Shown here: positions 5,858 through 30,890 of the stretch, piece by piece
Layout: every line of letters begins with the position of its first letter
How positions within the stretch are numbered: position 1 is the stretch's first letter
Source: a virus
Strand: one strand, 5' to 3'
DNA: 64,000 nucleotides
Virus record (IMG/VR): IMGVR_UViG_3300033145_002663
Coordinates: 1-64,000 of that record
The notes under the pieces: model-generated
Databases searched by the model: none
The model's input: the letters and a program-made list of their open reading frames with translations, nothing else
Told to the model about the DNA's origin: nothing
Position numbers and translations under genes: made by a program

Positions 5858-6522
5858 CCATTTATGTGTTTGGGGACAGCCATTCCAGTATGTTTAATGT
5901 AGATCACAGGCAACAAGAATCGAAGTTCAAAGTATCTCCGGAGGCCGTTGAGCATGAGGGTTTCGAAGGGTTTTTGGATGTTTCCTCCGGCGTCCCATTA
6001 GCTTATTCCCTTGCAAAGCATCATGAAGTTATCATGAAGGAATTGGAATCCATACCGTTTAAAGACGGCGATGAGATGTGGTTTATATTTGGCGAGATAG
6101 ATGTCAGGTTTCATATTTTTTACTGGCACCAGGAGCTGGAGATCTCGCTGGATGAATCCATCGATAATGTTGTTGTCAGGTATATTTCGTATGTAAAGAG
6201 ATTAAGAGAGATGGGGTATAATATCCACATCGTGAGCGTGGTTCCGCCACAACCGAATCCGTCTGCATTTCATAATGATCCGACCCTTGAGGTTCTCAAT
6301 CCGATTAGAGGTGATGGCATTACCGTTGCGGACAGAGTGTATATGACAGAGAGGTTAAACTCCGAACTCAGCAAGGCGTGCGCTGAAAATAACATACCGT
6401 TCAGGGATGTTCATCAATTTATAGTGGATCCGATTACCAGGTGCAACATTCCGGAAATGACCAGGGATAATATGCACTATTATTACATAGGTGATCTTAT
6501 TATTGAAAAATTCGGTTTATAG
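5854..6522 (+). CDS. SGNH/GDSL-family esterase or acyltransferase
   Basis: VFGDSHS (block I), FGEIDVR, DNMH (DxxH). Confidence 0.75.
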   Translation: MTIYVFGDSHSSMFNVDHRQQESKFKVSPEAVEHEGFEGFLDVSSGVPLAYSLAKHHEVIMKELESIPFKDGDEMWFIFGEIDVRFHIFYWHQELEISLDESIDNVVVRYISYVKRLREMGYNIHIVSVVPPQPNPSAFHNDPTLEVLNPIRGDGITVADRVYMTERLNSELSKACAENNIPFRDVHQFIVDPITRCNIPEMTRDNMHYYYIGDLIIEKFGL

Positions 6523-6533
6523 AGGAGACTTTT

Positions 6534-7394
6534 ATGATAGATCTTTGCGTTTTTTTTGCAGGCCAGAACCTCGATGCGTACGCGCCGTTGTTCCTGGAAA
6601 CATTGTATCAAAACTGCGACACGTCGAATCTCTGTGTTCATGTGGTGGAGAAGGGCGGCATCTATTATAACGGACCGGAGCGCGATCCGGGCGATCCGTG
6701 GTACACGTCGCTTCCGATTCAGTATTATGTTCCGGGTGTTGGCGATAATGTTCATGAGTATTTACTCCAAAAGCAAAATGAGGTGAATACACCGTTTACA
6801 ATTTACGAAAAGCACGACCCCAGCGAATTTTTTACAAAAACAAGACCGGGTGAACCGTTTTGGCATTTCGGGGATGATCATGGCAATACCTTAAACTGGG
6901 CAATCGAGAATTGCGGTACAAACAAGTGGATCATATTTTGTCACTCGGACATAATTTTTAGAAACGATGTGATCACCCGGTTCCAGGAGGAGATGTTTGA
7001 CTGGGTTGGTATGTTTGGCATTTACAATCATTGCTATGCTGTAAACCGGGAAGCATTTTCTAGAGTCGGCATAAAATTTAACTGTGTTACCAATTTCAGG
7101 GTGGTCCCGGTTAAGCACATCGGTTTTGATTATCAGTTAAAACACGCAGGTGATCCGAAATGCCCTGCGGATGCAAAGGTAGTTTACGGTTTTGATATTG
7201 GCGAATTGCTGGAAGTTATGATGATCGCTTATGGCTGGCATTGTGATGTATCAAACGTGCATCCTTTTTGTTCGAGCCTTGACCATATGGCGTCGGGTCA
7301 CGGGTATGTAAATGAAGTGACAAGAACACATCAGGAAAAACGGAGGCAGGCATGGATGAAGGAGTACGACATACAGAAAGTTACGATGAAATAA
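6534..7394 (+). CDS. Putative GT-A fold glycosyltransferase
   Basis: KWIIFCHSDIIF and GFDIGELL; paralog of 5123..5857. Confidence 0.55.
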   Translation: MIDLCVFFAGQNLDAYAPLFLETLYQNCDTSNLCVHVVEKGGIYYNGPERDPGDPWYTSLPIQYYVPGVGDNVHEYLLQKQNEVNTPFTIYEKHDPSEFFTKTRPGEPFWHFGDDHGNTLNWAIENCGTNKWIIFCHSDIIFRNDVITRFQEEMFDWVGMFGIYNHCYAVNREAFSRVGIKFNCVTNFRVVPVKHIGFDYQLKHAGDPKCPADAKVVYGFDIGELLEVMMIAYGWHCDVSNVHPFCSSLDHMASGHGYVNEVTRTHQEKRRQAWMKEYDIQKVTMK

Positions 7395-14166: not shown

Positions 14167-17100
14167 ATGGCTGATAAGACTTTAACGCTGGGGACTGTTT
14201 TTACATCTGATATCTCGCAGGTTATTAGTGCGATCAAACGATTAAGAACTGAGATGCAGGGTCTGAACAGTCGTATGCAGGGTCTTAGTTCTAAAGCTAC
14301 CAGTGCGTCTAAAGCCACTAAGTCCATGTCCACCAGCATGACCAAAGCAACAAAGGATACCAAAAAATTAGGTGAGACCCAACAATGGACCGGTAAGCAG
14401 ATCGGCAAGGTATCCGGTGCGTGGGAGCGTATGAAAGCGGCCATGAAAGTTACCGCGTCATACGGCCTTGCATCCAAGGCCATCTTTGGTATTTACACGG
14501 CCCTGACCGCCGGCACCCAGGAAATCATAAATTTTGATCAGGCATTAAAGAACTTGCAAGCAATTTCCGGTGCGACTGAAGCCCAGGTTTCCGTGATGGG
14601 TGATACCATTAAACAGGTTGCCAAGAGAACAAAGTTTTCTACGGTTGAGGTAGCCGAGGGCATGGTTCTGCTTACCCAGGCCGGTTTCTCCGCTTCCGAA
14701 TCCATGGCCGCGATTCAAGCGGTTGCAAACCTGGCTACCGGCACCTTGACCAGCCTGAAAGTTACGTCGGACCTTTTAACCACAACAATTCGCGCGTTTT
14801 CCCTTGAAGCTACGGAGGCCTCCCGTGTTGCCGATGTGATGGCCAACGCGATCAATAAGTCCAAGCTCACCATTGATAAATTGCGTATCTCTTTCAACTT
14901 TGTTGGTTCAGTCGCGGCTCAGACCGGTTTGTCCTTAGAACAGACCGCCGCGTCCATGATGGTTCTGGCGAACAGCGGTTTGCGGGCCAGCACGATCGGT
15001 ACCGGTCTCAGGCAGGTTCTTGCCCGGCTAATGGCGCCTACCGGTAAATTAAGAGAAGCGTTTGAATCCCATAACATCGAACTGGAAAAAGTGAATCCGC
15101 GCATCGTCGGGTTTCAAACCGCGATTAATAACCTTCTCCCAGTCATGTGGGACAGCAAGAAGGGCGCGGTTGATATGACCAAGGCGTTTGAGTTGTTCGG
15201 ACTGCGGGGATCTCAGGCCGCGGCAATCCTGGTAAAATCATTTGCCGGTACCGAGTATGCGAATATGCTCAGCAAGGTCTACGATGTTGGCGCTGCAGAG
15301 GCCATGGCCGGTATTCAGGCAGAGGGTCTTGGTGTTAAATTAAAGAACCTGGCGGATAGATTTAAGCTGGTTGCGATCGCGGCCGGTGAAGCAGGGGTTT
15401 CCAGCGCGATTGCGCTGCTGGTGGATACTTTAAAGGGTCTTTCCTATGTAATGGAGGCTGTCGCAAAGAACGTTATTGGTACCACACTGATCGGGTGGGG
15501 GGCCTGGTCATTGGTGATTCTGGGGACCGCAAAAGCACTAAAGGTTTTATACAGCTTGATGAAAAGCATGGCAGTTTGGACTGGGTTGAAGGCTGCAATT
15601 AGCGGTTTAGTTTTTCAGTTTACCACATGGAACTCGGTGCTTCTTCTTTCTGGAGCAAGCTTGACAAAATTAAGGGCTGCAGGGATAGCACTTTCATCAA
15701 TGTTTGCGGCTTTGTCGCCGTTAACAAAGTTTGTCTTGATTCTTGGTGCCATGGCCACTGCTTTTGGAGTTGTTGTTAATTGGTCAAAAAAGCATCGGGA
15801 AGAGCTTGAGAAAACTGTCGAGGTTCATAAAGCCGGGATAGGATCACTTCAGCAGCACTCTAAGGCCCTGGAGGATTTGAACGAAAAGCTTGAAGACGGT
15901 GAAGACGTTACCGAGCAGTACAAAGCTACGGTGAAGCGATTACAAAAAGAACACGAGGATCTGGCCAGGTATGTAAATTTTAATACCGCGAGCCATGAAG
16001 AATTAAATCGAGCAATCCAGAAGCTTTCGTTTGATAAATTTCGAAACAGCCTGCCGGATTTAATTAGCCTGATTGCCCTGCAGACAAAGCGGGTTAAAGA
16101 GTTAACTGCCGGTTTTGACGCGTTGAAGGTCAGCACGGACGCTGCCGCCGATGTGTGGATCGACAATGAATTTGCCGGGAAAGCTTCTGTTGAGCAATGG
16201 AAAACAGGGCGCATTGCTATAAATAGTCTTGAAAATGCTAATCAGGACTTAACTTCTCAGTTAGTTCTTTTCGTTAAACAGGAAAAAATCACGATCGATG
16301 AGGCAAAAGAATTAATCACAAAATACTTTGAGACCGAGGGTGCCACGGACAAACTGGCCGATGCCATCAAACGGCTTGAAGATGCAATGGCCGCATTGAA
16401 CAAAGAAACATCGATGGTTAGTGGTGGAGCGTTGCGGAGTATTACTGATGAATACGAAGCCTATTACAAAACCTTAAATGACCTTGAAAAAGCCCGCATG
16501 GTTGTGGCTACCGACACCATGCTTAAAACTCAGAAAAATAGAGCGAGCACGCTTAAGAAAAGACTGCGGGACGAACCGGACGCGGAGCGTTTAATCGGAG
16601 TTGCAAAGGGTGACGAGGCCGCTAAAACCTTATTGAAACAGATTGATAATAATAAAAAAGAAGAATTGAGTTTTCAGGCTTTAATAAATTTCAAGAAAAA
16701 CGCGCTTCGTGAATATGCAGGTGATGTTGACTCACGTTATAGTGAGGATCTTAAAAAGATCGATGAATATTATGAGGAAGAAATTGACAAGGTAAAGGCA
16801 AAGGCGCTTACAAAGGTCAGCGTTGAAAAACTTTCTCAAATAGACAGGGATAATATTAGCAAACAGGCAATTGCTAAAGAAACGGAGTTGAGAAAGAAGC
16901 GCGATTCAAAATTTCAAGAGATGGCCATGAGGCATGCAGGGTTTATGGCGGCGATTGAAGGATCTGTCTCTAAAGTCAAAGAAAAAAAACAAAAGGGAAA
17001 GTCCGCAGCTGAATTAAAGTTAGAGTCCGACAAACAATACTACACGGCTATGGAGAGGGCCAGCGGGGATGCGTTTGAAAAGTTGCGGATGCAGCAGGAC

Positions 17101-18507
17101 AAACAATTGTTGGCGGATCAGAAATGGCTGGCCGCCCGGTTGAAAGATCGCACGAAGTTTAATGAATCCGTGGCTCAGGTGATGGAGAAATACGGCAATC
17201 TTCGAACCGCTCATGAGAATGAAGTGGCGGCTAAATCATTGAAGATTGTAAAGGATCAGGCGGATCAGGCGGCAAAGATTGAAGAGGATAAGGCCAAGAC
17301 TATCCTGGAGGCTAAAAAGAAGATCGCTGTTGGGGATAAGGACGAAACCGCCCGGCTTGCCCAGGAGGAGCGGGATCTTGAGTTAGGATTTATGGAGGAT
17401 CGTTTAAATCGGCACAGGACTCATTATGAGAATTTAAAGATACTTCACGGAGAATATCATTCGAAGGTTAAGGCGGTCTATCAAAAATTGATCGAGGAAG
17501 AAAATAAGGTTGAAGAAAAACGAACGTCCAACGCCGAGTCTAATCATCAGGATCGAATCAATGCGCTGAAACGATATTTCAATGAAGGATTATCCGCCAC
17601 ACAGCTGTACTCGGATAAGTGGCTTGCAATTATGAAGTTCATGCACGAAGAACATATGATCGAAACCCATGATTTTTTGAATCGTATGAAATCCTATTAT
17701 GTTTACTGGATGGACGAACATGAGAAACAGTGGAAGCGCGGAGAGGTTGCGGTTGAAGATTATGTTGCCAGTATTCAGGAGGCCTTTGATCATGCGGCGA
17801 TAACTCTGGAAGAATATAATGAGAGGATGGTTGCTTCAAACGGCACCATGATTGAAGCATTGATGTGGGGTCTCGATCGGGCAAAAGAAAAGATTCAGTC
17901 GTGGCAAGAATTATTCATGAATATTGGGGAAACGTTTGTCGATACGTTCAGCAGCGATGTGACGGGCGCTATATGGGATGTGATTGAGGGAACTAAATCC
18001 GCGGAGCAGGCGTTTCAGGACTGGGCTCGCAGTACTCTTCGCTGGATCGGTGAGATGATCACTAAGCTGTTGATTCAGAAAGCTATTATGATGGCGATGG
18101 GTATGGCCATGGGTGGTAGCTCCCCAACACCGGATACAGGAGGGATGGGGCCTGTAGATTATTCAATGCCTAGAGGTGTAGCTCATGAAGGTGGAATCGT
18201 CGGTGTTACCCCATTTCCCACCAGGATTGTTAATCCTAACATCTTCGCAAATGCCAAAAAAGCTCACGGAGGTCTTGCTCCTGACGAACGCCCTGTCATT
18301 ACAAAAAAGAATGAGGGAATTTTTACACCGGATCAAATGGCAGCATTGGGGCCGGGCGGTACCCGGGTGGAGCTGACCAATATCAATGTCGTGGATGAAC
18401 GGGTATTGCCCAGACTTCTTGCTTCTCCGATGGGGAAGAGCGCAATGTTTAATTTTATGGGTCAGAACGCACCCATGATTAAAAGAATTGTTGGGGGTGG
18501 CCGATAA
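14167..18507 (+). CDS. Tail tape measure protein (TP901 family)
   Basis: 1446 aa; TKFSTVEVAEGMVLLTQAGFS...LANSGLRASTIGTGLRQ core; helical and coiled-coil; C-terminal AHEGGIVG. Confidence 0.95.
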   Translation: MADKTLTLGTVFTSDISQVISAIKRLRTEMQGLNSRMQGLSSKATSASKATKSMSTSMTKATKDTKKLGETQQWTGKQIGKVSGAWERMKAAMKVTASYGLASKAIFGIYTALTAGTQEIINFDQALKNLQAISGATEAQVSVMGDTIKQVAKRTKFSTVEVAEGMVLLTQAGFSASESMAAIQAVANLATGTLTSLKVTSDLLTTTIRAFSLEATEASRVADVMANAINKSKLTIDKLRISFNFVGSVAAQTGLSLEQTAASMMVLANSGLRASTIGTGLRQVLARLMAPTGKLREAFESHNIELEKVNPRIVGFQTAINNLLPVMWDSKKGAVDMTKAFELFGLRGSQAAAILVKSFAGTEYANMLSKVYDVGAAEAMAGIQAEGLGVKLKNLADRFKLVAIAAGEAGVSSAIALLVDTLKGLSYVMEAVAKNVIGTTLIGWGAWSLVILGTAKALKVLYSLMKSMAVWTGLKAAISGLVFQFTTWNSVLLLSGASLTKLRAAGIALSSMFAALSPLTKFVLILGAMATAFGVVVNWSKKHREELEKTVEVHKAGIGSLQQHSKALEDLNEKLEDGEDVTEQYKATVKRLQKEHEDLARYVNFNTASHEELNRAIQKLSFDKFRNSLPDLISLIALQTKRVKELTAGFDALKVSTDAAADVWIDNEFAGKASVEQWKTGRIAINSLENANQDLTSQLVLFVKQEKITIDEAKELITKYFETEGATDKLADAIKRLEDAMAALNKETSMVSGGALRSITDEYEAYYKTLNDLEKARMVVATDTMLKTQKNRASTLKKRLRDEPDAERLIGVAKGDEAAKTLLKQIDNNKKEELSFQALINFKKNALREYAGDVDSRYSEDLKKIDEYYEEEIDKVKAKALTKVSVEKLSQIDRDNISKQAIAKETELRKKRDSKFQEMAMRHAGFMAAIEGSVSKVKEKKQKGKSAAELKLESDKQYYTAMERASGDAFEKLRMQQDKQLLADQKWLAARLKDRTKFNESVAQVMEKYGNLRTAHENEVAAKSLKIVKDQADQAAKIEEDKAKTILEAKKKIAVGDKDETARLAQEERDLELGFMEDRLNRHRTHYENLKILHGEYHSKVKAVYQKLIEEENKVEEKRTSNAESNHQDRINALKRYFNEGLSATQLYSDKWLAIMKFMHEEHMIETHDFLNRMKSYYVYWMDEHEKQWKRGEVAVEDYVASIQEAFDHAAITLEEYNERMVASNGTMIEALMWGLDRAKEKIQSWQELFMNIGETFVDTFSSDVTGAIWDVIEGTKSAEQAFQDWARSTLRWIGEMITKLLIQKAIMMAMGMAMGGSSPTPDTGGMGPVDYSMPRGVAHEGGIVGVTPFPTRIVNPNIFANAKKAHGGLAPDERPVITKKNEGIFTPDQMAALGPGGTRVELTNINVVDERVLPRLLASPMGKSAMFNFMGQNAPMIKRIVGGGR

Positions 18508-19109
18508 TGTATACCATTGCCCCGGCAGAAACGTTGTGCTCATTTGCTCCGCACTGGGCTGAAGACGTTAAGTTGCAGCGGCGATACATTACGACAATTA
18601 CAGAAACCGAAGAAGGGAATGAACAGCGAAGCGGTATTCGCCCAACGGTTGAACATGGACTATCTTTTACGGTTCAGACTAAGAACCAGGCCCAGACGAG
18701 TTATCTGAGAAGGCGTTTGAACAAATATGTAAATCAAGTATGGCATGTACCTATATGGCCATACGAAATGCAATTAACCAGCGAGGCTTCAGCAGGTTCC
18801 AGTGTTTTAAATGTAGACGAAGCAACCTACCGGGAATTGGATCAAATCGGGCCGAGCGGTGAGGTTGTTGAGGTTGTTTTGCATAAAGATTATAACACTT
18901 TCGAGTCCGGGGAAATATTAAGCTTTGATTCGACAACCATTACATTGGATAAGAATTTAGACTCGACATGGGCTCAGGGATCAAAGGTGTATCCATTGTT
19001 TAAAGCAACGTTGGGTATGGCGGTTGACCTGGAAGCGCCGACACAGGAGCATTCGGTAGTGGGGTTGAGTTTTAACGAATCTTTCAGATCAATATCCGGT
19101 GAGGCATGA
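18507..19109 (+). CDS. Distal tail-like protein
   Basis: Follows tape measure; ETEEGNEQRSGIR...WHVPIW. Confidence 0.6.
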   Translation: MYTIAPAETLCSFAPHWAEDVKLQRRYITTITETEEGNEQRSGIRPTVEHGLSFTVQTKNQAQTSYLRRRLNKYVNQVWHVPIWPYEMQLTSEASAGSSVLNVDEATYRELDQIGPSGEVVEVVLHKDYNTFESGEILSFDSTTITLDKNLDSTWAQGSKVYPLFKATLGMAVDLEAPTQEHSVVGLSFNESFRSISGEA

Positions 19110-19720
19110 GTTTTTCTACATTTAAAGACAAGTATGTTTTTCATTTATTTCCGTATTGGACTGAGAATCCGAAAGATTCGTTCGCTCATGGCTTTGAGGA
19201 ATTTGAAGGGTTCGGTTATACGGCAGGTGAAGAGGTTGAAACATACCCGCGCTATCGAACAAACTTGCAATATATTTTTAGAACCAGAGCTAAGATCAGC
19301 GAAGTAAACGATCTGTTTGACAATCGGCTGGGAATGTTGGGGGCTTTATGGTTTCCGTCTTTTCAAAAGGACATTGTTTTAACGTCTGATATTGGATCGG
19401 CGGATCTTAATATCAGCATTGAAGACATCGAGTACAGCACTTTTTATCCTGCGACTCCCGGGACCGGGCGTTATATATTTATTTATGTTAATTCAAATAA
19501 GTGGTTTGCCAGAAAAATAATAGGAGCTCCGTCCTCCACTCTCTTGACCATGGAGTCTTCCCTGGGAGAAGCCGTAACAATGGCAAGGGTTAAGATGGTT
19601 TCAATTTTATATTTAGGCCGATTTGATATCGATGAGATTGAATGGGAGTATGTCACTCCGGATATTGCAACAACAGATTTATATTTTATTGAACTTCCTA
19701 ACGAGTACGCGGACTTATGA
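19106..19720 (+). CDS. Distal tail-like protein
   Basis: Position; RLGMLGALWFPSF...LGRFDIDEIEW pattern. Confidence 0.55.
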   Translation: MSFSTFKDKYVFHLFPYWTENPKDSFAHGFEEFEGFGYTAGEEVETYPRYRTNLQYIFRTRAKISEVNDLFDNRLGMLGALWFPSFQKDIVLTSDIGSADLNISIEDIEYSTFYPATPGTGRYIFIYVNSNKWFARKIIGAPSSTLLTMESSLGEAVTMARVKMVSILYLGRFDIDEIEWEYVTPDIATTDLYFIELPNEYADL

Positions 19721-20556
19721 AATCTTCACCATCAGCAACTTTTACAAATAATGAAGAAGGTACGGAACGCCGACCTGCAGAGTTATTCCATATCTGGAGG
19801 GGTTCCACCCACTGGAGATATACCAGCGGACTTAATCCAATTGTTTACAATGGAAACACTTATGTTCCGGGTCCGATTATGAGACAAACAATTCAGCATG
19901 ATAGTGATATTGCGGCGGATACCGTAACAATAACTTGTGCTCGAACCATGCCGCCATTTTCAGAGTATGGAGCTAATATGGCGATAGATAGTGTTTGGAT
20001 TACGATCTATAATGTGTTTTGGGATCAAAGTCCGATTGAAGCTTCACCTATTTTTTCGGGTTTAGTGGAAAAAATATCAGCCCAGGGCCCTGCTTATAGT
20101 ATCCCCTGCGTGTCTTTAGAATATGTCCTTCATAGATCCGTTCCAAGATATAGATATCAACCGGGTTGCAATCATACAATCTACAGTGCCAGGTGCGGGG
20201 TAACTGAAGCAACCTATCAAATAACAGCCACGGTAGACAGTATCAGTGCCAGTGGGTTTGTTTTAACATTATCCGGGGCAACCTTTGAGAGCAATGCGGC
20301 GCCTTATTATCTTCTTGGTAATTTATATTTCGGGGATCACAAACGTATGATCGTGGATCATTCGGGGTTAACGGTAACCATGAGATATGCTTTGGTTACT
20401 TTAGAGGCAGGAAGTTCAGTTATAGTTTCGGCAGGATGTGATAAATTAAAAGAAACCTGTCGGGATAAATTCGATAACATGGTTCATTATTTCGGGTTTC
20501 CCTATATTTCTTTTGAGAATCCAGTTCTAAGAACTTTTTCAAAACCGGTGTACTAA
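19717..20556 (+). CDS. DUF2163 / BR0599-family tail hub protein
   Basis: YQPGCNHTIYSARCGV and AGCDKLKETCRDKFDNMVHYFGFPYI Cys motifs. Confidence 0.9.
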   Translation: MKSSPSATFTNNEEGTERRPAELFHIWRGSTHWRYTSGLNPIVYNGNTYVPGPIMRQTIQHDSDIAADTVTITCARTMPPFSEYGANMAIDSVWITIYNVFWDQSPIEASPIFSGLVEKISAQGPAYSIPCVSLEYVLHRSVPRYRYQPGCNHTIYSARCGVTEATYQITATVDSISASGFVLTLSGATFESNAAPYYLLGNLYFGDHKRMIVDHSGLTVTMRYALVTLEAGSSVIVSAGCDKLKETCRDKFDNMVHYFGFPYISFENPVLRTFSKPVY

Positions 20557-21026
20557 TGGAATGGTATTTTACAGAAACAGAACGGCAGTTACAATTGAAA
20601 GCAATTATTGATTCATGGATTAACACCCCGTTCCGGCATCGATGTGCTGTAAAGGGTAAGCAGGGCGGTGTGGATTGCATCCATTTTTGTGCGGAAGTGT
20701 ATAAGGAATTAGGGGTGATAGATAGTTATAATATTCCTGAGTACGCTCCGGATTGGCATCTTCATCGTACAGGCGAAAAATTATTGCTTGGCATTTTTAA
20801 TTTTGCAGACTCACATCCAACGGGCACTTTAAAAAGTGTTGGGTACGCAAATCCAAAAAATGGGGATGTAATTATGTTTCAGTATGGCAGGGCTTCAGCT
20901 CATACGGCCATATATTATGAGAATCGAGTGTATCAGGTATTGACCGGTATGCGAGTAGAACCCCGACCATGGAATGATGCAACCACTAACTTTAGAAAAC
21001 AATATGGATTGAGGGTATATGAGTAG
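20556..21026 (+). CDS. NlpC/P60 tail-associated peptidase
   Basis: SWINTPFRH...GVDCIHF...HTAIY. Confidence 0.85.
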   Translation: MEWYFTETERQLQLKAIIDSWINTPFRHRCAVKGKQGGVDCIHFCAEVYKELGVIDSYNIPEYAPDWHLHRTGEKLLLGIFNFADSHPTGTLKSVGYANPKNGDVIMFQYGRASAHTAIYYENRVYQVLTGMRVEPRPWNDATTNFRKQYGLRVYE

Positions 21027-22368
21027 CTGGACTAATTTTTTTATTGCTGGATTTGCCGGTATAATAGGATTTATTGCTTCCGGTTTTAATCCCTATGTCG
21101 GAATGTTGACATTTTCTCTGGTCGCAGGAGTTGCGTCTTATATTAATCCTGTGACCCCTGATGTAGATTCTCCCGGGCAACCACAAATAGGTCAGCTTCA
21201 TATTGCAACGGCTTCGGAAGGAACGATCATTCCCGATGTTCTCGGCACGATTAAAACCACCGGTAATATTTTCTATTTTTTTGGAGATCGTAATGAAGAA
21301 GTTATGACAGAGGTTGAGGGAGGGAAAGGTGGTGCATCAGGCGAGGAATTTCTTTCCGGTTATAAATATTTTTGCTCCTGGCTTGTGGGTATTTGCTTAG
21401 GACCGGTGGATACTCTTTATGCCGTATATGCGGGGGATACTTTAGTTTGGGCGGGGGAGCTTGATTGTCCGGCCTCCGGTGGAGAAGAAACCATTACATT
21501 AGGCAATTTAGAGCCGGAACTTACCGGGAAAGAAGTTACTCATCATCATGATGTAACACATGTGTGCGAGCATTCCGGGAGCACAATAAAAGTTGTTACT
21601 CAACCCCCAGATCCCTGGCTGGATGCAACAGGAGAGTCAGCCCTCACTCCCTATGGTGTGGAATATATTAGTGGGACAATTTCTGCGGATTGGTACGATG
21701 CCACCAATGAATTTTTATATACCAAAACCGCTGTTATTCTTAACAGGACGTTTTCTCTCCTTGCACCATGCGCATCGATGGCCGACGCTCTAATGGGGAT
21801 AAATAATTTAACAGTTAATTCAGACCCTTTCAGCGATTCAGCTTATCAATATAAAAATGCCCAGTTACATTTAGTATTTCGATACGAGTACGATGAATCA
21901 GAAACTGCGACTTCAATGGGGTCGATGACATTTTATTTTGGTACGGATGATCAGGTAGCGAATAGTACTGTCGGGGGCTCCTTGGCGGACGGTACGCTTA
22001 ATCCCGCATACCGTGGATTATGCTATGCGTTTTTTAATGATAATTATATTGGCAGAAACAACGGTGCGCCCACTATGCGGTTTGTTGTTGGAAAACGTCC
22101 GAAGTATGCGTTCAGTGCTTTAGAATCTATTAATGCTTACGATTATAACATTGCACATGCGATTTATCATATTTTAGTAAATGACATGCATTTAGGTTTG
22201 GGTACCGATTTAATTGGTAATGCCACTTTTGCCCAGGTAGCCGCGACCTTAAGTGGTGAGGGCAGGGGAATCAGTGCGTTAATTGGTACACAGCAATCTG
22301 CCAGCACATATATTGAGGCTTTTTTACTTCATGGAGGAGGGATGCTTACGAGCAGCTCAGACGAATGA
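21019..22368 (+). CDS. Tail tip / host-specificity protein, N-terminal part
   Basis: TASEGTIIPDVLGT, VEGGKGG, ICLGPVD, PAYRGLCY, NIAHAIYHIL, EGRGIS motifs of phage tail-tip proteins. Confidence 0.8.
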   Translation: MSSWTNFFIAGFAGIIGFIASGFNPYVGMLTFSLVAGVASYINPVTPDVDSPGQPQIGQLHIATASEGTIIPDVLGTIKTTGNIFYFFGDRNEEVMTEVEGGKGGASGEEFLSGYKYFCSWLVGICLGPVDTLYAVYAGDTLVWAGELDCPASGGEETITLGNLEPELTGKEVTHHHDVTHVCEHSGSTIKVVTQPPDPWLDATGESALTPYGVEYISGTISADWYDATNEFLYTKTAVILNRTFSLLAPCASMADALMGINNLTVNSDPFSDSAYQYKNAQLHLVFRYEYDESETATSMGSMTFYFGTDDQVANSTVGGSLADGTLNPAYRGLCYAFFNDNYIGRNNGAPTMRFVVGKRPKYAFSALESINAYDYNIAHAIYHILVNDMHLGLGTDLIGNATFAQVAATLSGEGRGISALIGTQQSASTYIEAFLLHGGGMLTSSSDE

Positions 22369-22664
22369 TAGCCTATAAATGTAAATGCGGTGCGACTTCT
22401 TTTAATGGAGTTGAGTGCCCGGTGTGCAGCTCAAAAGACTTGATTATTATTAAGGAGACTAACGGTGTTCGAATATTAAAGAAATGGGAAGATGGAACGG
22501 TGGTAGTTTTATTTCCATTTCCTGTTGCAAATCACCTGCATGACCCGGGTTTTTGGAATTTGCTTATCAGTGAAAGAATTTATACTGAAGGTCATGTATT
22601 AATGAACTACTTGGACGAATTGGAAAATGAGTCACTCATTCAAACTAAAATTATTAAGAGATGA
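22365..22664 (+). CDS. Hypothetical Cys-rich protein between tail-tip fragments
   Basis: CKCG...CPVC N-terminus; overlaps both neighbours. Confidence 0.5.
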   Translation: MIAYKCKCGATSFNGVECPVCSSKDLIIIKETNGVRILKKWEDGTVVVLFPFPVANHLHDPGFWNLLISERIYTEGHVLMNYLDELENESLIQTKIIKR

Positions 22665-23901
22665 TATTGCTTTAGCTTCCATACCGGATTTACCAAGCAA
22701 TGCTTTATTGTCTCCACCCGTAGTAACTCGAAAGTCATTAATTGGTTGTGTTAATGATGTACGAGTTAATTATGTTTTGAGAGTTGGATTGCCTGATATA
22801 TCCATTTCTTACCTTTCGTGCGATTATAGTGTTGCACAGGTAGTTTTGTCTAATGGCACTATTTACACTTGGGGGGATGGATGGTGTGGCCAATTAGGGA
22901 ATAATACGGATGATGAGGTTTTAAGTTCTGCCCCTGTAATCCCGTATGGCGATCATAATTTTATTTATGGTGGAATTTATCCTGAGCATGCTTGGGGTAT
23001 AGATGATCAAGGACAATTATGGTGTTGGGGAGAAGGGGATAATGGGGAATATGGCGATGGAAGTCACGGTAGTGTAGAATACCCTATAGAAGGAGGAATT
23101 GGTTATTTTTTCTCAAAAGTTCGTATGGGTGGTCGGCATACTATGGGTTTAGAATCTGGTACTGGAAAGTTGTATGGTTGGGGATATCAAACAGGTGGGG
23201 ATCCCGCACAAGGGGAATGTGGTTTAGGTCCGGCATATACTCCTATTGAGGGATTAATTGTCCTGCTTCCAGTACAGGAATATTTAGGCAAAACAGATTG
23301 GGTAGACGTTTGGTGTGGTTGGAACTTTTCAATTGCGATTGATTCTTCGGGAAGATTATGGGGGACAGGCAATAATGGATGTAGTTGTATTGGTCAACCG
23401 GGCGAAAGTGGTGGTCATCAAATTCAATTCACACAAATAGGCACTGATACAGACTGGGCAAAGGTAAGAGTTGGGGATTGTCATTGTTTAGCTCAGAAAA
23501 ATAATGGAGACGTTTATTATTGGGGTACAAATACTTCTGGGCAGTTTGGCGATGGTACTGCGAAGTATACCGGTGAAACGTATACCCCAGTAAAGATGGA
23601 GATCCCCGATGTCCAAGATTTTATGTGTGGAGCGTTCTTTTCTGCCATCCTGAAATCCGATGGGACTTTATGGATGGCTGGAGAAAACTCAGCAGGGCAA
23701 TTAGGACTTGGATATAGGCCAACTGATGTCTTAATATATACTCAAATAACGAATTGCCCAGCATTTTCAAAGATAGCAGAGCAGGGAGAAGCCCACATGC
23801 TGGCAGTTACTGAAGATAACCAAGTTTATGAATGGGGTTATACAATGGACGGGTATTATACGGTACCTACATTAGTAAACTTTGATTTTACAGGAAGTTA
23901 A
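22627..23901 (+). CDS. Tail-tip middle fragment fused to an RCC1-repeat beta-propeller (candidate receptor-binding protein)
   Basis: N-terminal FKLKLLRDD...VNDVRVNY segment, then about 7 repeats of G.(L/V)(Y/W).WG.N..GQLG. Confidence 0.85.
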   Translation: MSHSFKLKLLRDDIALASIPDLPSNALLSPPVVTRKSLIGCVNDVRVNYVLRVGLPDISISYLSCDYSVAQVVLSNGTIYTWGDGWCGQLGNNTDDEVLSSAPVIPYGDHNFIYGGIYPEHAWGIDDQGQLWCWGEGDNGEYGDGSHGSVEYPIEGGIGYFFSKVRMGGRHTMGLESGTGKLYGWGYQTGGDPAQGECGLGPAYTPIEGLIVLLPVQEYLGKTDWVDVWCGWNFSIAIDSSGRLWGTGNNGCSCIGQPGESGGHQIQFTQIGTDTDWAKVRVGDCHCLAQKNNGDVYYWGTNTSGQFGDGTAKYTGETYTPVKMEIPDVQDFMCGAFFSAILKSDGTLWMAGENSAGQLGLGYRPTDVLIYTQITNCPAFSKIAEQGEAHMLAVTEDNQVYEWGYTMDGYYTVPTLVNFDFTGS

Positions 23902-23904
23902 AAA

Positions 23905-25299
23905 ATGGCAATTGGAGTAAATGTAAAAGAATCTGTTGTAATGTCTGAAGACCTGGGCAGTAAACAGGTGGTCGGAACTATTCATAAATCCGCACGGTTT
24001 ATGCTGTTCACAACCACACCGAATGCTCAGTGGGCGGCGGACAGAATTATACAGGAGAATGCTTATCCTTTTGCGGATGTTGTAATTGAAACAAACCGTA
24101 AATTATTTCGATATATGCCGGGGGATGTTTTTAGGCTCACCTATGCTCGTTATAGCGAGAATTTGATCTTGCGGGTTTTAAATATACAGGAAGAGGATTT
24201 ATTGTCCGGAAAAATTATTGTTTCCTGCATCGAGGATCCTCGATATGCAGGTCAGTTAATTCCAGCGGATACCATGGACATTCCCGTTGGAGAGGGTGAT
24301 GAAGGACCCACTCAATTCCCGTTAGAACCGCTCGACAATTTTACAATCAAGGAAGCTCCCTACGTGCTTGTCGGAGATGAAATTAAAATCATTACCCTGG
24401 TGGGCAGAGAAAAAGGGTACGAGGTTGGGTATGCTTTGTACATGTCCATTGACGATGGGGCTTCATTCGCCAAGATTCAGGATGCAACTTCTTTTGCGGT
24501 TCATGGTACATTGGCATCTGCTTACACGGACCAGACCAATATTATTGATGACGATGTAGGCTTTGATGTCATTATTGAGACAGATGCGGATGCAATTCAG
24601 AGTGTTACCAGGGATCAGTTATTTACGGCAACAAATTTGGCGGTTATACATAATGAAATCGTTACCTTCCAGACCATTACGCCTTATGGCTCTGATAACA
24701 AATATAAGATTGAAGGCATTTATAGAATGAGATGGGGGACAGATCAGGTTCATCATTCAGTCGGAGAAGATTTTTATTTTATTGGTGGCGGAAGGTATGA
24801 AATTTTAACGAATGTCGAATTTGTTTTAGGCGCTCAGATTTATTTTAAGGTCGTTCCTTACTCAGGATATACAATAAGTGCTATAGAGTATGCCATGCCA
24901 AAATACATTGAGTTGGCAGGGACTGCCAGGGAACCTTATGATCCGTGCAATTTAATAGCGAATGGCGTTGCCTTAGATCCTACGTACTCTACCAATATAG
25001 ATCTTGCCTGGAATCCAAGGGTTAGGGGCGATGGCGCAGGTCTTGAAAATCCGGATTATTATACAGATGCTGAAAATACATGGGAAGGTTTGTTTGAAGT
25101 GCAAGTGTGGGTGTCTTCCTCGCTGGTTCGTACAATAACAGGGATCGATAATGATCATTATGTATATACCGAAGCTATGAATTTAATAGACAACGGCAGT
25201 TTAGCCGGCTCGATTGAGTTCTGGCTGCGTAATTATATCGATGTTAGTGGTCAGACATATTATTCGGCATGGGTTAAAAGAACGGTAACTAAGATATGA
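23905..25299 (+). CDS. Tail tip protein, C-terminal part
   Basis: YMPGDVFRLTY, LRVLNIQE, NEIVTFQ, GIYRMRWGT, IDLAWNPR patterns typical of GTA-like tail proteins. Confidence 0.8.
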   Translation: MAIGVNVKESVVMSEDLGSKQVVGTIHKSARFMLFTTTPNAQWAADRIIQENAYPFADVVIETNRKLFRYMPGDVFRLTYARYSENLILRVLNIQEEDLLSGKIIVSCIEDPRYAGQLIPADTMDIPVGEGDEGPTQFPLEPLDNFTIKEAPYVLVGDEIKIITLVGREKGYEVGYALYMSIDDGASFAKIQDATSFAVHGTLASAYTDQTNIIDDDVGFDVIIETDADAIQSVTRDQLFTATNLAVIHNEIVTFQTITPYGSDNKYKIEGIYRMRWGTDQVHHSVGEDFYFIGGGRYEILTNVEFVLGAQIYFKVVPYSGYTISAIEYAMPKYIELAGTAREPYDPCNLIANGVALDPTYSTNIDLAWNPRVRGDGAGLENPDYYTDAENTWEGLFEVQVWVSSSLVRTITGIDNDHYVYTEAMNLIDNGSLAGSIEFWLRNYIDVSGQTYYSAWVKRTVTKI

Positions 25300-25463
25300 G
25301 CACAACATTCAAATTAAAATTATTAAGAGAGGATGTACCCCTTGATTCTATCCCGGAATTGCCGAGTGAGGTTTTGTTGTCAGCACCCGTAATAACTCGT
25401 AAGAACCCTCAGGCATTGATTAATGATGTCCGTGTAAACTTTGTGAAAAGAATTGGGGAATAA
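25296..25463 (+). CDS. 55-aa stand-alone paralog of the N-terminal module of the RCC1 protein (absent from the ORF track)
   Basis: MSTTFKLKLLREDVPLDSIPELPSEVLLSAPVITRKNPQALINDVRVNFVKRIGE; ATGA overlap with the upstream stop. Confidence 0.85.
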   Translation: MSTTFKLKLLREDVPLDSIPELPSEVLLSAPVITRKNPQALINDVRVNFVKRIGE

Positions 25464-25465
25464 AA

Positions 25466-25657
25466 ATGAAACGACAATTACCGGATAAAATATATTTAAT
25501 CCTGGAAGAAACTTTTGACAAAATTATTGAGGAATTAGGTGAGAATGAAATTCATGGTCATAAATTTCATATGGTCGAGAGAGAATTCAGGTTTATGATA
25601 CGGAATAAACGGCATGAAGCGAGGAAATCATGGCAACAACAACTAAATATGGTTTAG
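25466..25657 (+). CDS. Hypothetical protein
   Basis: 63-aa ORF filling the operon. Confidence 0.45.
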   Translation: MKRQLPDKIYLILEETFDKIIEELGENEIHGHKFHMVEREFRFMIRNKRHEARKSWQQQLNMV

Positions 25658-26091
25658 TTACAGTCGAGTATGGTGTTACCGGGTGGAACGGAATTTTAAA
25701 AACTTCCACTCAACAGATAGATTATTTTCTCCATACATACGCACGATTTCGGGTAGCCTCTGGGGAATCCATTGCTCCATACAGACCCGTATGCCTGCAG
25801 AACGGACAGTGGAAGTTGGCCATGGATGACGGTTCCGGGCGTCTCCCGAATGTTGGTCTCTCCATTGAATCCACCACAAAGGGGAGCGGGGAGTACCTGC
25901 GGGCTCAGCGCTGCGGGCCGGTAACGAACAACTCCGGGGAAGCGGCCTGGTCCTGGGACCCGGTAAGCGGGGAAGTCTGGACGAATGAATCGGGAGAATT
26001 GGTTCAGGGTGTGTCCGGTGAGAGCTGGCGGAACCGCCAGGCACGTGTAGGGTGCGTATCTGATGAAACAACTATTTTTATTCAATTATAA
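25630..26091 (+). CDS. Putative virion structural / tail-associated protein
   Basis: MATTTKYGL...GWN N-terminus and GESIAPYRPV...WKLA pattern seen in small virion proteins. Confidence 0.5.
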   Translation: MATTTKYGLVTVEYGVTGWNGILKTSTQQIDYFLHTYARFRVASGESIAPYRPVCLQNGQWKLAMDDGSGRLPNVGLSIESTTKGSGEYLRAQRCGPVTNNSGEAAWSWDPVSGEVWTNESGELVQGVSGESWRNRQARVGCVSDETTIFIQL

Positions 26092-28944: not shown

Positions 28945-30252
28945 TTATCCTCCATTCCCCGGAAACTTAATCACGTTATTAAAATCCTCAACACAAACCT
29001 TCCTTGCTTCCCTCTGTCGCTTGATCGCGGCTTCCTGCACCTGGCGTTTCTTATCCATGGTGATCTCAGCGTACTGCTCCACGGACTTCCGTGTGGCATG
29101 ATCTGTTAGGATCTGCAGGTCGTCGATCGATCCTCCCTCCTCAATAAAATTCGTACATGCCGTATGTTTTAATCCCTGGTACGTCCAGATACGCCTCACC
29201 CCCGCGTCGTCGCAGGCCTGGTACCACAAATTCCTGAGCGCCTCGAGGGTGTACCTCCGTCCTTTCTTCCGGGCCCGTGGATTTGCAAACAGGAACGGGC
29301 TGTCCGGATCCTGATTTAAAAGCTGCTCGGCAGTTGCTTTGAACCGATCATCGCATGCCACGTAATGAATCTTGGGTTTCTGCCAGTTGGTCTTAACCGA
29401 ATTAACAAGCTGCCTGGCAGATATGGCCCGGTGAACCTTAAAACACTCCGTGAACGGATCGTAATCGATCTTATGCAGGGCGCAGGCCTCACCGAGTCTC
29501 CGGTAGTGCAAATACACCCAGTGAAATATCGGGCGCGTAGTTCCAGGCAGCTTGTTATACACGGCGTCCCATTCTTCCCGTGTGAGCCACTGAATTTCAG
29601 GCTTTTGGAGGTTGTAGTCCTCAAGTGTAGGGAAGGGCGGAACCACCGAGATACGCTTGGATCTGCGGGCGTAGAGCATCATTTTCTTTAAGGTGCTCAT
29701 AATGTTCAGAGCGGTCTTATCAATATTGCCCTCCGGGTTCTTTCGTCTAAGCCGATCAAGGATGTAATTTAAAAACGACATCAGAATATCATGCTCGATC
29801 TCATGCAGCCGAACCGGGTGCTTGGAGAAGAAAGGTTCGATCCAGGTGCGGGCATATGATTGATACGCTTTTATCGTGGCCGGCTTACGGCGTTTGGCCA
29901 CGACGTCATTGATAAACGTATGGTAATACTCGATGGTGTCCGTCCAGCCGTCCTGTGTGAACTCCTCGATCCTGAAGACGCACTCGCCCTTCTTCGCTTG
30001 CTCAGCGCGTCCCTGCATGAGAGAGCGGAGTTTTCTGGCCAGCTCGTACCCTTTGCACTTATCCTTGTCCGGTACCGGGCGCCCATTATTAAGAACAATC
30101 GTGCCGCTGCGCATCTTAAACGCGGTGCAGGGCATGTGGCCACCCTTGTATTTTGTGATCCAGCGGTTCTTATTTTTCTTCGTGGACTTTTCATCATACC
30201 AAATCACGGCCCACCGGTTCCGGTCAGCCTGATATTGAATTGAGCCTTTCAT
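28945..30252 (-). CDS. int: Tyrosine integrase with atypical catalytic motif
   Basis: HYRRLGEACAL (Arg I), YQGLKH (in place of HxLRH), LTDHATRKSVEQY (Tyr); SD GGGAGG before ATG 30252; near attP. Confidence 0.9.
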   Translation of the reverse strand: MKGSIQYQADRNRWAVIWYDEKSTKKNKNRWITKYKGGHMPCTAFKMRSGTIVLNNGRPVPDKDKCKGYELARKLRSLMQGRAEQAKKGECVFRIEEFTQDGWTDTIEYYHTFINDVVAKRRKPATIKAYQSYARTWIEPFFSKHPVRLHEIEHDILMSFLNYILDRLRRKNPEGNIDKTALNIMSTLKKMMLYARRSKRISVVPPFPTLEDYNLQKPEIQWLTREEWDAVYNKLPGTTRPIFHWVYLHYRRLGEACALHKIDYDPFTECFKVHRAISARQLVNSVKTNWQKPKIHYVACDDRFKATAEQLLNQDPDSPFLFANPRARKKGRRYTLEALRNLWYQACDDAGVRRIWTYQGLKHTACTNFIEEGGSIDDLQILTDHATRKSVEQYAEITMDKKRQVQEAAIKRQREARKVCVEDFNNVIKFPGNGG

Positions 30253-30299
30253 AACATAATCCTCCCTGAAGGGAAGATTATCATATATTTGATTCTTAA

Positions 30300-30890
30300 T
30301 CAATATTTCGTCAACGTTAAATTTAAATATTTTTTTCTGGCGTTATATTCCATCCTATTTATACAAAACCCATCTGTGTTTGCATAATCCACATCAAAGG
30401 AAATCTTGGCGGTACTGGATACAGGCAGTCTTGTTAAAATCTTTTTAAATTCTAATACGGTTAAATTTTTCTTTCCCAATGAGTTCCTTCCGTTTAATAC
30501 GAAGTTTATGTAGTTTTTATTATTGTCAATTAGTTCAATTATGCCTATATTATCTTCATTAAAGAAAATTTCTGTATCATCAGGCATTTGGTTTAAAATT
30601 GCTTTAAGATTCATTACTGTTAAAACGCGGTTAATTTCTTTTACAAATCCTTTTTTAGAGCGAATATAATTAAGCAATTCATCAGAAAGCTTAAACCATT
30701 CACCACGAATTTTTAAATGATGAAACTGTTGATGTAATTTCATTTCATCATTTTTATTACCATTAATTGTTTTGAGTAATTTTAATTTAGAAGGAGTCCC
30801 TATTTGCAATTCAGCCAATCTTTTTTTTGGACTTTGTGATGTTCCGATTTTAATATCACCATTTTGACCATTTTGAATAAAATAAATCAT
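30300..30890 (-). CDS. GIY-YIG (T5orf172 / MUG113-like) domain protein
   Basis: MIYFIQ...IKIGTSQSPKKRLAELQIG...LHQQF...RGEWF. Confidence 0.85.
   Translation of the reverse strand: MIYFIQNGQNGDIKIGTSQSPKKRLAELQIGTPSKLKLLKTINGNKNDEMKLHQQFHHLKIRGEWFKLSDELLNYIRSKKGFVKEINRVLTVMNLKAILNQMPDDTEIFFNEDNIGIIELIDNNKNYINFVLNGRNSLGKKNLTVLEFKKILTRLPVSSTAKISFDVDYANTDGFCINRMEYNARKKYLNLTLTKY

Follow-up and report, generated by a model that had tools for sequence, protein, structure and literature searches.

Background

Tail-tip hubs of the 'megatron' type, namely, RcGTA g15 (PDB 6TBA/6TEH) and the R4C megatron (8GTC), are single chains of 1304-1447 aa that include a large peripheral (TIM-barrel-like) domain and a fibre-binding domain, and they are encoded at the end of a gene series that runs from the tape measure protein through the distal tail genes, a g13-like hub (Gp84_N and BR0599 domains) and an NlpC/P60 peptidase to the hub itself. 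The solved or cultured hubs that are closest by sequence to the one analysed here, the minor tail protein of phage Chi (8VJH), gp53 of phage JBD30 (8RK3), the FBPa53 hub and Salvo gp43, are each made of one polypeptide, and hubs of the Chi/JBD30 type are trimers that close the tail (PMC11445458). The core of the tail tip can be divided among genes, as is apparent when RcGTA g13 and g15 are compared with T4 gp27, or JBD30 gp53 and the upper baseplate protein gp50 with T5 pb3 (PMC7296036, PMC11445458). In both cases, the divisions lie at domain boundaries, and there is one fixed partner each.

Phages with multiple receptor-binding proteins have conserved N-terminal anchor domains on these proteins, and 'evolved' Dit and Tal proteins are baseplate proteins with carbohydrate-binding insertions. 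The locus described here shares with these systems the combination of a constant attachment part with a variable host-binding part, or the insertion of binding modules, and shares with the megatrons the gene order, the Rcc01698_C domain, Phage-tail_3 in divided form and a profile match of the N-terminal part of the hub. However, the chain of its hub is broken twice, in or next to the Phage-tail_3 ('central') domain, and the peripheral load resides on a separate segment of 55 residues (hereinafter, the module). Judging from the gene sequences and predicted structures, we estimate at roughly 0.7 the probability that the tail-tip hub of this uncultured temperate siphophage is built from three polypeptides, the middle piece of ~55 residues being supplied in trans and coded in both a loaded and a bare version.

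Results

The window (the whole stretch of DNA that was analysed, 64,000 nt, positions 1 to 64,000 of the IMG/VR virus record IMGVR_UViG_3300033145_002663) contains the following features in and around the tail-tip block:

19717..20556, + strand: baseplate hub protein, RcGTA g13 type (context); Pfam Phage_phiJL001_Gp84_N 1.5e-16, Phage_BR0599 5.7e-14
20556..21026, + strand: NlpC/P60 tail peptidase, RcGTA g14 type (context); Pfam NLPC_P60 28.3 bits, cut-off 23
21019..22368, + strand: N-part of the tail-tip hub ('megatron'/J-like), 449 aa; phrog_1101 1.2e-38, phrog_6284
22365..22664, + strand: 99-aa ORF with an N-terminal CxC...CxxC motif (ORF list)
22627..23901, + strand: RCC1 protein, 424 aa, module copy 1 plus propeller cargo (ORF list)
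22627..22791, + strand: module copy 1, the N-terminal 55 aa of the RCC1 protein; module HMM E 8e-25
22792..23901, + strand: cargo, a seven-bladed RCC1-like beta-propeller; Pfam WD40_RLD 1.5e-49, RCC1_2, RCC1
23905..25299, + strand: C-part of the tail-tip hub, 464 aa; Pfam Rcc01698_C 8.4e-10, phrog_1101 positions 355-785
25296..25463, + strand: module copy 2, the bare 55-aa protein; phrog_6284 positions 237-287 (E 0.0016)
25466..25657, + strand: 63-aa helical ORF, of a small family adjoining module genes
25630..26091, + strand: conserved 153-aa protein (context); homologue P0004 in locus L003, same block end in relatives

The ORFs are all intact and lie close together, every coordinate of the initial annotation was matched, and a promoter and terminator scan of the locus gave signals at or below shuffle expectation. 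The N-part, module and C-part, which are separate ORFs with stops between them rather than a single polypeptide, form a block that follows the tape measure protein, the distal tail genes, the g13-like hub and the g14-like peptidase, and the gene order around the peptidase is the same in L003. The N-part contains hydrophobic N-terminal helices like those of the RcGTA iris/penetration domain (PMC7296036), an adhesin-like region and the first portion of Phage-tail_3; its profile matches Chi 8vjh_A (residues 3-231, 2.2e-19), RcGTA g15 6tba/6teh (10-204, 8e-14), the R4C megatron 8gtc_M (5-204, 4.6e-11) and 8rk3_o (6.4e-10). The C-part, with less than 26% identity to any cultured phage and 48 stand-alone homologues of about 460 aa, comprises the remainder of Phage-tail_3 and the Rcc01698-like C-terminal domain (PF23666, 39.3 bits, cut-off 27, residues 198-290), and its profile matches residues 292-732 of Chi (E 1e-19). 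Phage-tail_3 (PF13550) is there in divided form, and none of the genes alone qualifies as the whole domain: the C-part of the window scores 20.3 bits (cut-off 23) over positions 96-163 only, its L003 orthologue scores 30.6 bits over positions 81-162, and positions 1-76 are seen, weakly (E 0.065), in the fused protein P0036, where they cover the end of the N-part together with the module.

The initial annotation had proposed that the module is the segment that single-chain relatives hold between the N-part and the C-part, and this is borne out by the gapless order N-part, module, C-part in PHROG profiles, solved hubs and cultured-phage proteins. In phrog_6284, the N-part covers positions 70-229, the bare module 237-287 and the C-part 290-632, and phrog_1101 leaves a 60-position gap precisely between the N-part and the C-part. 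The module aligns with residues 235-283 of Chi 8vjh_A, between the regions matched by the N-part and the C-part; the respective segments of the single chains are 2-213, 218-264 and 273-677 in Pseudomonas phage FBPa53 and 8-294, 312-355 and 356-753 in Xylella phage Salvo gp43, and the same order is seen in the solved single-chain hub, JBD30 gp53. Unlike the loaded module of the window, these four hubs lack cargo after the module. A module profile of 4 sequences had no credible PDB match, whereas one of 28 sequences matched a single-chain hub in the PDB.

The recurrence of the N-terminus of the RCC1 protein as a 55-aa gene is likewise solid (34 of 54 positions identical, or 63%, with 80% positives, ungapped, BLASTP E 2e-22). 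At the DNA level, the repeat is direct, confined to the module, 73-77% identical, with the copies 2669 nt apart, and a search of the whole 92.5-kb virus record found exactly these two copies. The start of the bare ORF overlaps the stop of the C-part, in keeping with the proposed ATGA coupling, and the invariant residues of the module are intact in it; a Shine-Dalgarno site was looked for and none was clear. The ORF is not, as had been stated, unannotated: its exact product was already in the protein collection, on two contigs. As to the proposed selection on the module protein, dN/dS between the copies is 0.23-0.25 (Nei-Gojobori), but dS is about 1.2; because synonymous sites are near saturation, dN/dS values of 0.23-0.66 are soft evidence.

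Several other mechanisms were considered for this arrangement. The copies are direct repeats only, no significant inverted repeat brackets them and no invertase- or DGR-type Pfam match was found among the neighbouring ORFs; a host-range switch of either kind was rejected for this locus, in line with the initial annotation. Protein splicing was rejected since no intein-like sequence was seen, by reading, at the junctions, and so was a constant fusion, by read-through, of the bare module to the ORF that follows it, the frames of the two differing in the window and coinciding in L007, with the order reversed in L031.

The cargo has the seven blades, above Pfam thresholds, and the fold of an RCC1-like propeller (WD40_RLD 169.7 bits, cut-off 150; RCC1_2 100.7 bits; RCC1 77.3 bits); the best Foldseek match is UVR8 4dnw_A (TM 0.81 by target, E 1.3e-25), and RCC1 was found as well. 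Such a propeller is probably an adhesin and may serve in receptor binding.

Three small genes lie within or beside the block. The 99-aa ORF sits between the N-part and the loaded module, the start of which it overlaps by 38 nt, has no Pfam or PHROG match and has no counterpart at the same spot in L003 or L006, and whether it belongs to the module system is uncertain. In L011 and L039, too, small ORFs with Cys motifs lie close to module or C-part genes. The 63-aa ORF resembles the ORFs that follow the bare module (47% identical, E 4e-11) and a loaded module (38%, E 8e-9) of L007, as well as a 75-aa ORF placed before the bare module of L031; it had no family match, and an ESM Atlas look-up returned generic helical matches only. 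Proteins of 214-233 aa related to the 153-aa protein follow the C-part in L007, L008, L010, L011, L031 and L032.

The 55-aa protein alone, used as the query against genome contigs and viral sequences, yielded no matches; the relatives (22 IMG/VR loci and metagenome loci) were gathered via the C-part and its alignment. Among them, the fragments occur fused in the same order. The commonest form (14 loci) consists of two genes, namely, N-part, module and cargo in the first and C-part in the second, and L012, L018, L023 and L043 encode a single chain with a 225-380-aa insert after the module. The free-module form (the window, L006, L007, L008, L010 and L011) is confined to one clade with 99/97 support in the C-part tree. 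Each of five fused-type records contains exactly one module copy and the free-type records contain 2, 2, 2, 2 and 3; two or three module genes per record were found only in the free-module clade. Because the free-module loci all fall in that one clade, the link between freed modules and multiple copies rests on a single evolutionary event. The older state likely was one gene for N-part, module and cargo, with the cargo inserted after the module; the three-gene state is peculiar to a single clade. The module gene is found between the N-part and the C-part, after the C-part (the window, L006 and L030) or upstream of the hub gene (L011).

The search for other cargo domains on the module, suggested by the initial annotation, revealed RCC1, Kelch and BNR propellers, a small Cys-rich domain and poly-Ser tails across the relatives; on free modules, the identified cargos are RCC1 or BNR propellers, others are without a family match, and some modules are bare. 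The notion of a plug-in adaptor gains from this diversity or lack of cargo and from the two or three copies per record, although the opposition of RCC1-loaded and bare modules, in which it was originally framed, is just one instance of a broader system. The modules also carry a lineage signature: both those of the window and those of L006 contain NDVR(V/L)N(F/Y), in a strand that the predicted complex pairs with C-part residues 29-32, and the C-parts of these two loci have F32, whereas in other lineages L or M at this position goes with a KVQY-type module.

The principal competing explanation, which we consider unlikely, is that the hub is indeed split and the RCC1-loaded module is its true third subunit, but the bare ORF is a decaying, roleless remnant of a second module-cargo gene, left by deletion of its cargo. 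Indeed, L006, a 61%-identical relative, has a 440-aa loaded module after the C-part, L030 has an RCC1-like loaded module there, the Shine-Dalgarno site of the bare ORF is weak, and bare modules are not monophyletic but scattered among loaded ones on the (short, weakly resolved) module tree, so some of them could be products of repeated truncation. Nevertheless, bare modules, 54-61 aa in length, make up at least nine protein clusters at 50% identity and turn up in four loci (the window, L007, L008 and L031) at differing positions, and all of them are full length and stop cleanly no more than a few residues from the module end, unlike what random truncation would produce. Furthermore, dN/dS is 0.31 between the L007 and L031 bare copies and 0.23 between the window copies, and the retained invariant residues and the overlap with the C-part stop also speak against decay. 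The longest contigs of P0010, a bare 58-aa protein, and of P0042, the closest C-part relative (68% identical), are both 2280 nt, which is suggestive of adjacency.

The complex of N-part, bare module and C-part was predicted with an ipSAE of 0.80 in three runs that agreed on at least 87% of contacts, with partner pLDDT of at least 76; the best control reached 0.47, and two controls with unrelated partners scored 0.00. Among solved complexes, 58 of 80 attained the mark applied; among mismatched pairs, 2 of 110 did. In the prediction, module residues 2-55, that is, nearly the entire module, are buried through about 280 contacts with N-part residues 374-448 (the last ~75) and C-part residues 3-114 (the first ~114), which make up the two walls of the predicted socket. 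This check, of a kind proposed by the initial annotation, gave a score above the best control, but the result may reflect the model's memory of the solved single-chain hubs of Chi and JBD30 and shows likeness of fold rather than binding of free pieces. When the RCC1 protein was folded alone, module residues 1-56 had pLDDT below 50 and lacked secondary structure. For L023, a natural single chain, AF2 gave a model (pTM 0.37) that was poor precisely in the module and insert region (pLDDT below 50), a point against the scheme; being uninformative, it was left out of the fold mapping.

The predicted interface bears on a second alternative, marginally less probable than the remnant, under which both modules function but are not interchangeable, the bare one being a transient placeholder or assembly factor until the loaded one replaces it, or else a regulator or decoy that never enters the virion. 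Translational coupling of the bare ORF to the C-part suggests 1:1 synthesis with the socket, the small helical ORFs beside module genes could serve an assembly step, and every socket is loaded with cargo in fused relatives; yet the burial of almost the whole module looks permanent and not like that of an exchangeable ligand.

It is highly improbable that the module is a mere docking peptide at the N-terminus of a tail fibre that binds the outside of a complete, unsplit hub. A common N-terminal region on differently loaded proteins is, admittedly, the classic picture of a fibre anchor, but the module stands in line between the N-part and the C-part in cultured-phage single chains and solved structures, the profile gap has exactly its size, and fused relatives hold it covalently after the N-part. 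Least credible of all is an assembly artefact of the metagenomic contig, since a collapsed or duplicated repeat would not leave copies that are only 67-77% identical in DNA, the ORFs are intact, and the same split recurs in contigs assembled independently from other samples, with a module gene following the C-part in L006 and L030 and several modules in L007, L008 and L010.

Discussion

Under the three-polypeptide reading, the hub, of the RcGTA g15 'megatron' or lambda J-like type, would have an N-part that ends and a C-part that begins inside the Phage-tail_3 domain. The module would be unfolded on its own and would fold, by fragment complementation, on insertion between the C-terminal ~75 residues of the N-part and the N-terminal ~114 of the C-part, thereby completing the Phage-tail_3 domain and tethering its C-terminal cargo at the periphery of the tail tip. 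The phage would code for two such plugs, one bearing the seven-bladed RCC1 propeller and the other bare, its translation coupled to that of the C-part. A trimeric tip is presumed, with the stoichiometry of three per tail taken from solved homologues, and because the same contact residues are present in both modules, either should fit each of the three sockets of a tail. The blank module might ensure that every socket is filled; it does not appear to be needed sterically, given that all three sockets carry cargo in fused relatives. Assembly in trans in real virions and competition of both modules for one socket are what we infer from this scheme, and virions might plausibly mix loaded and blank plugs, which would be the protein-level switch of the initial annotation.

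A more far-reaching proposal, to which we give slightly less than an even chance, is that this clade of uncultured temperate siphophages has a natural tag-and-socket display, in which two or three co-encoded plugs with the same 55-residue fold fragment (RCC1 or BNR propellers, other domains or a blank) complete an open hub and yield tails with mixed, combinatorial sets of host-binding domains and no DNA rearrangement. Unlike the divided tail-tip cores of RcGTA and JBD30, the split cuts through a single Pfam domain, and the small fragment comes, in this clade, in two or three alternative versions. Unlike the anchors of receptor-binding proteins, the module is a fragment of the hub's own fold, not a folded adaptor that docks on a surface, and it also exists without cargo.

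Conclusions

If assembly proceeds as predicted, this would be a phage structural domain completed by an exchangeable fragment of 55 residues, a principle distinct from swapped fibre genes, invertase switches, diversity-generating retroelements and folded adaptor domains. Such a scheme would account for the accommodation of several adhesins from one genome on a three-fold tail tip and, in laboratory phage engineering, would offer a short tag of natural origin by which foreign domains could be attached to siphophage tails. With their fused, two-gene and three-gene forms, the relatives make a clean series in which the evolution of gene fission inside a domain can be studied.

Results

The ~55-aa module that begins the RCC1 protein and recurs downstream as a bare ORF was identified as the segment that, in single-chain tail-tip proteins, lies between the two hub portions encoded here by separate genes (hereafter, N-part and C-part). 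All ORFs named in the initial annotation were found where it had placed them, in the following setting; the window comprises the leading 64 kb of an IMG/VR virus record that totals 92.5 kb.

14-27 kb, + strand: siphophage tail operon
14167-18507, + strand: tape measure gene
18507-19109 and 19106-19720: two distal-tail-type genes of ~200 aa each, between the tape measure and g13-like hub genes
tail operon, + strand: RcGTA-g13-like hub gene (Gp84_N and BR0599 domains)
tail operon, + strand: NlpC/P60 peptidase gene, ahead of the split-hub genes
21019-22368, + strand: N-part (449 aa)
22627-23901, + strand: RCC1 protein (424 aa), loaded copy of the module
23905-25299, + strand: C-part (464 aa)
25296-25463, + strand: bare module
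28945-30303, minus strand: integrase gene
27.5-30.3 kb: att site together with the integrase gene

The Rhodobacter capsulatus gene transfer agent and the 'megatron'-tip phages have their tail genes in this order (PMC7296036). The products of the two distal-tail-type genes match positions 511-681 and 697-898 of phrog_1082 (tail assembly protein) consecutively, so that another tail gene may be split too, unless these are a tandem pair; at this site, the close relative L003 encodes one SPRY+PKD protein of 491 aa.

Colinearity of the three parts with unsplit hubs was judged by comparing profile coordinates rather than by searching with a concatenated sequence. Along phrog_6284, the N-part aligns to positions 70-229, with the bare module next at 237-287 and the C-part after it at 290-632; along phrog_1101, the N-part stops at 295 and the C-part begins at 355. 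The part profiles match the phage Chi minor tail protein (8vjh_A) at 3-231 (E = 2e-19), 235-283 (0.002) and 292-732 (1e-19), and line up in the same order on the JBD30 hub gp53 (8rk3); these entries were identified from PMC11945409 and PMC11445458. Within one chain of Pseudomonas phage FBPa53, the HMMs detect the N-part at 2-213, the module at 218-264 (8e-13) and the C-part at 273-677; in Xylella phage Salvo gp43, the respective ranges are 8-294, 312-355 and 356-753. Positions 96-163 of Pfam Phage-tail_3 fall on the window C-part (81-162 on its orthologue), and positions 1-76 weakly match the end of the N-part plus the module of one fused relative. The family pattern given in the initial annotation is therefore right and, as judged from sequence, the gene breaks fall within or at the margin of a single Pfam domain, Phage-tail_3. 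The window C-part is at most 26% identical to that of any cultured phage.

The N-terminus of the RCC1 protein and the 55-aa ORF share 34 of 54 residues without gaps (E = 2e-22). At the DNA level, the two copies form a direct repeat, 2669 nt apart and 73-77% identical, in which similarity is restricted to the module; they are the only copies in the 92.5-kb record. Neither an invertase-type nor a DGR-type feature was found around them.

A search of the module profile against 1.84 billion representative proteins (E below 1e-3) yielded 36 matches, of which about nine stand alone (54-61 aa), about twelve begin with the module and continue with 30-450 aa of cargo of various kinds, and about twelve have it at residues ~305-378, behind an N-part; for the C-part, 48 homologues of about 460 aa occur as separate proteins. 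The loci retrieved via the C-part alignment (22 from IMG/VR and 44 from metagenomes), annotated with HMMs of the three parts, display three hub architectures: a single chain with a 225-380-aa insert separating module and C-part (L012, L018, L023, L043); two genes, N-part plus module plus cargo and then C-part (14 IMG/VR loci), with Kelch propellers among the cargos; and a module separate from the N-part (the window, L006, L007, L008, L010, L011). In the C-part tree, the free-module loci comprise a single clade (support 99/97), so the fission of N-part and module probably was one event. Multiple module genes were seen only in this clade: over whole records, the module profile finds one copy in each of five records with the module fused to the N-part (17-60 kb) and 2-3 copies in those with a free module.

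Order of module and C-part genes
Window: RCC1-loaded module, C-part, bare module
L006: 155-aa module protein, C-part, 440-aa module protein
L007: RCC1-loaded (520 aa), bare (57 aa), RCC1-loaded (532 aa), C-part
L008: bare (57 aa), 277-aa module protein, C-part farther along
L010: 689-aa module protein plus a 462-aa BNR propeller, then C-part
L030 (partial): C-part, then RCC1-like module protein
L031 (partial): RCC1 cargo end, small helical ORF, bare module (57 aa), C-part

L011 has its module-cargo gene upstream of that for the hub; such shifting of position fits a subunit that is made separately.

Accessory tail genes seem to gather preferentially in the interval between the N-part and C-part. 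In some free-module phages, paralogous genes for ~366-aa proteins (starting MALLWFDGFE / MALVFMDSFDHY) separate the module genes from the C-part (L008:4023-5123, 5821-6927; L038:316-1416). A group of small helical proteins of 63-102 aa directly adjoins module genes in several phages (window 25466-25657; L007:4685-4993, 5167-5397; L031:219-446), the window and L007 forms being 47% identical (E = 4e-11). The group matches no family and could comprise assembly chaperones or partners in a mobile cassette of module and small ORF. Short ORFs bearing Cys motifs (CxC...CxxC, CPRC, CPVC) recur beside module or C-part genes (window 22365-22664, L011:757-1122, L039:411-620); the 99-aa window ORF shares 38 nt with the start of the RCC1 gene and is missing there in the closest relative. 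The window N-part exceeds that of the closest relative (312 aa, L003:6602-7540) by 137 aa, the extra block being at about residues 160-300; N-parts are long in L007, L010 and L011 and short in L006 and L008, which makes this block another site of variable insertion in the hub. A conserved protein encoded after the C-part ends in a long poly-serine tail in L007:8403-9074, L008:8322-9023, L010:8397-9050, L011:5424-6098 and L031:2028-2729, as do some module proteins of relatives (P0019, P0030), whereas the window homologue (25630-26091) has none. Given the large glycosyltransferase cluster read at window 1-11 kb in the initial annotation, the poly-Ser tracts of this phage group might serve as substrates for glycosylation.

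Assembly of the hub domain in trans, with either module version, had been proposed, and we modelled the version with the bare module (the scored partner), N-part and C-part, each with its own alignment. The predicted complex reached ipSAE 0.80 in all three runs, with at least 87% contact agreement between runs and partner pLDDT of at least 76; the best control, in which the module was retained and the C-part swapped, gave 0.47, and two with unrelated partners gave 0.00. In calibration, 58 of 80 solved complexes and 2 of 110 mismatched pairs reach the ipSAE mark, counts that are only approximate here because of the self-supplied alignments and three chains. Nearly all module residues (2-55) make predicted contacts, with residues 6-8 touching N-part 403-407 and 442-443, and residues 46-49 touching C-part 10, 29-32 and 41-45. 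Solved single-chain relatives exist, so the high score may reflect prior learning of that fold by the predictor: the model gives a possible layout of the three pieces as one domain, from which binding between them does not follow. Folded alone, the RCC1 protein gives a propeller of high confidence, for which UVR8 is the best Foldseek match (TM 0.81), and a disordered module (residues 1-56, pLDDT below 50). For the natural single chain L023, AF2 produced a model that was poor around the module and was left out of the argument.

As to whether both copies fit one socket, the module tree groups by phage lineage, not by cargo. The motif NDVR(V/L)N(F/Y), on a strand whose predicted partner is C-part 29-32, is common to modules of the window, L006 and P0009/P0010; C-parts of this lineage have F32, and those of other lineages, with a KVQY-type module, have L or M. 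In the alignments, this signature amounts to one clade-level co-change, which is consistent with a shared socket but is not proof, since a recent duplication would yield the same.

Several observations favour a functional bare copy. Clean bare forms of 54-61 aa recur across many lineages in varied positions, and the invariant residues of the module are intact in both window copies. The proposed selection on the protein fits dN/dS values below 1, namely, 0.23 between the window copies (Nei-Gojobori; a soft figure, with dS about 1.2) and 0.31 between the L007 and L031 bare copies. The start codon overlaps the C-part stop (ATGA), indicating translational coupling, and P0010, which may adjoin the closest C-part relative, is a possible orthologue. 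Against function, L006 and L030 have a loaded module gene after the C-part, bare modules are not monophyletic on the weakly resolved module tree, and no clear SD site was found at the bare ORF.

Discussion

Propellers and lectin-like domains are widely used in phage adhesins, and from this general usage and their position we infer that the module-borne propellers bind receptors. Precedents exist for invariant anchors attached to variable receptor-binding proteins and for hub functions shared out among genes (RcGTA g13 and g15 versus T4 gp27; JBD30 gp53 and gp50 versus T5 pb3). In our literature search, no account turned up of a tail-tip domain divided in such a way that a short piece of its own fold acts as an interchangeable anchor and also exists in a blank form.

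We estimate at about 70% the probability that the hub is completed by trans-complementation with both modules usable. The hub would be produced with an open socket, and a 55-residue fragment, unfolded alone, would complete the Phage-tail_3 domain and carry its cargo to the exterior of the trimeric tip. The two module versions would compete for three sockets per tail, the trimeric tip and this count being taken from solved homologues (PMC7296036, PMC11445458). Conceivably, the mixed tails that would result are a genuine display system kept by selection, a proposition to which we give slightly less than even odds.
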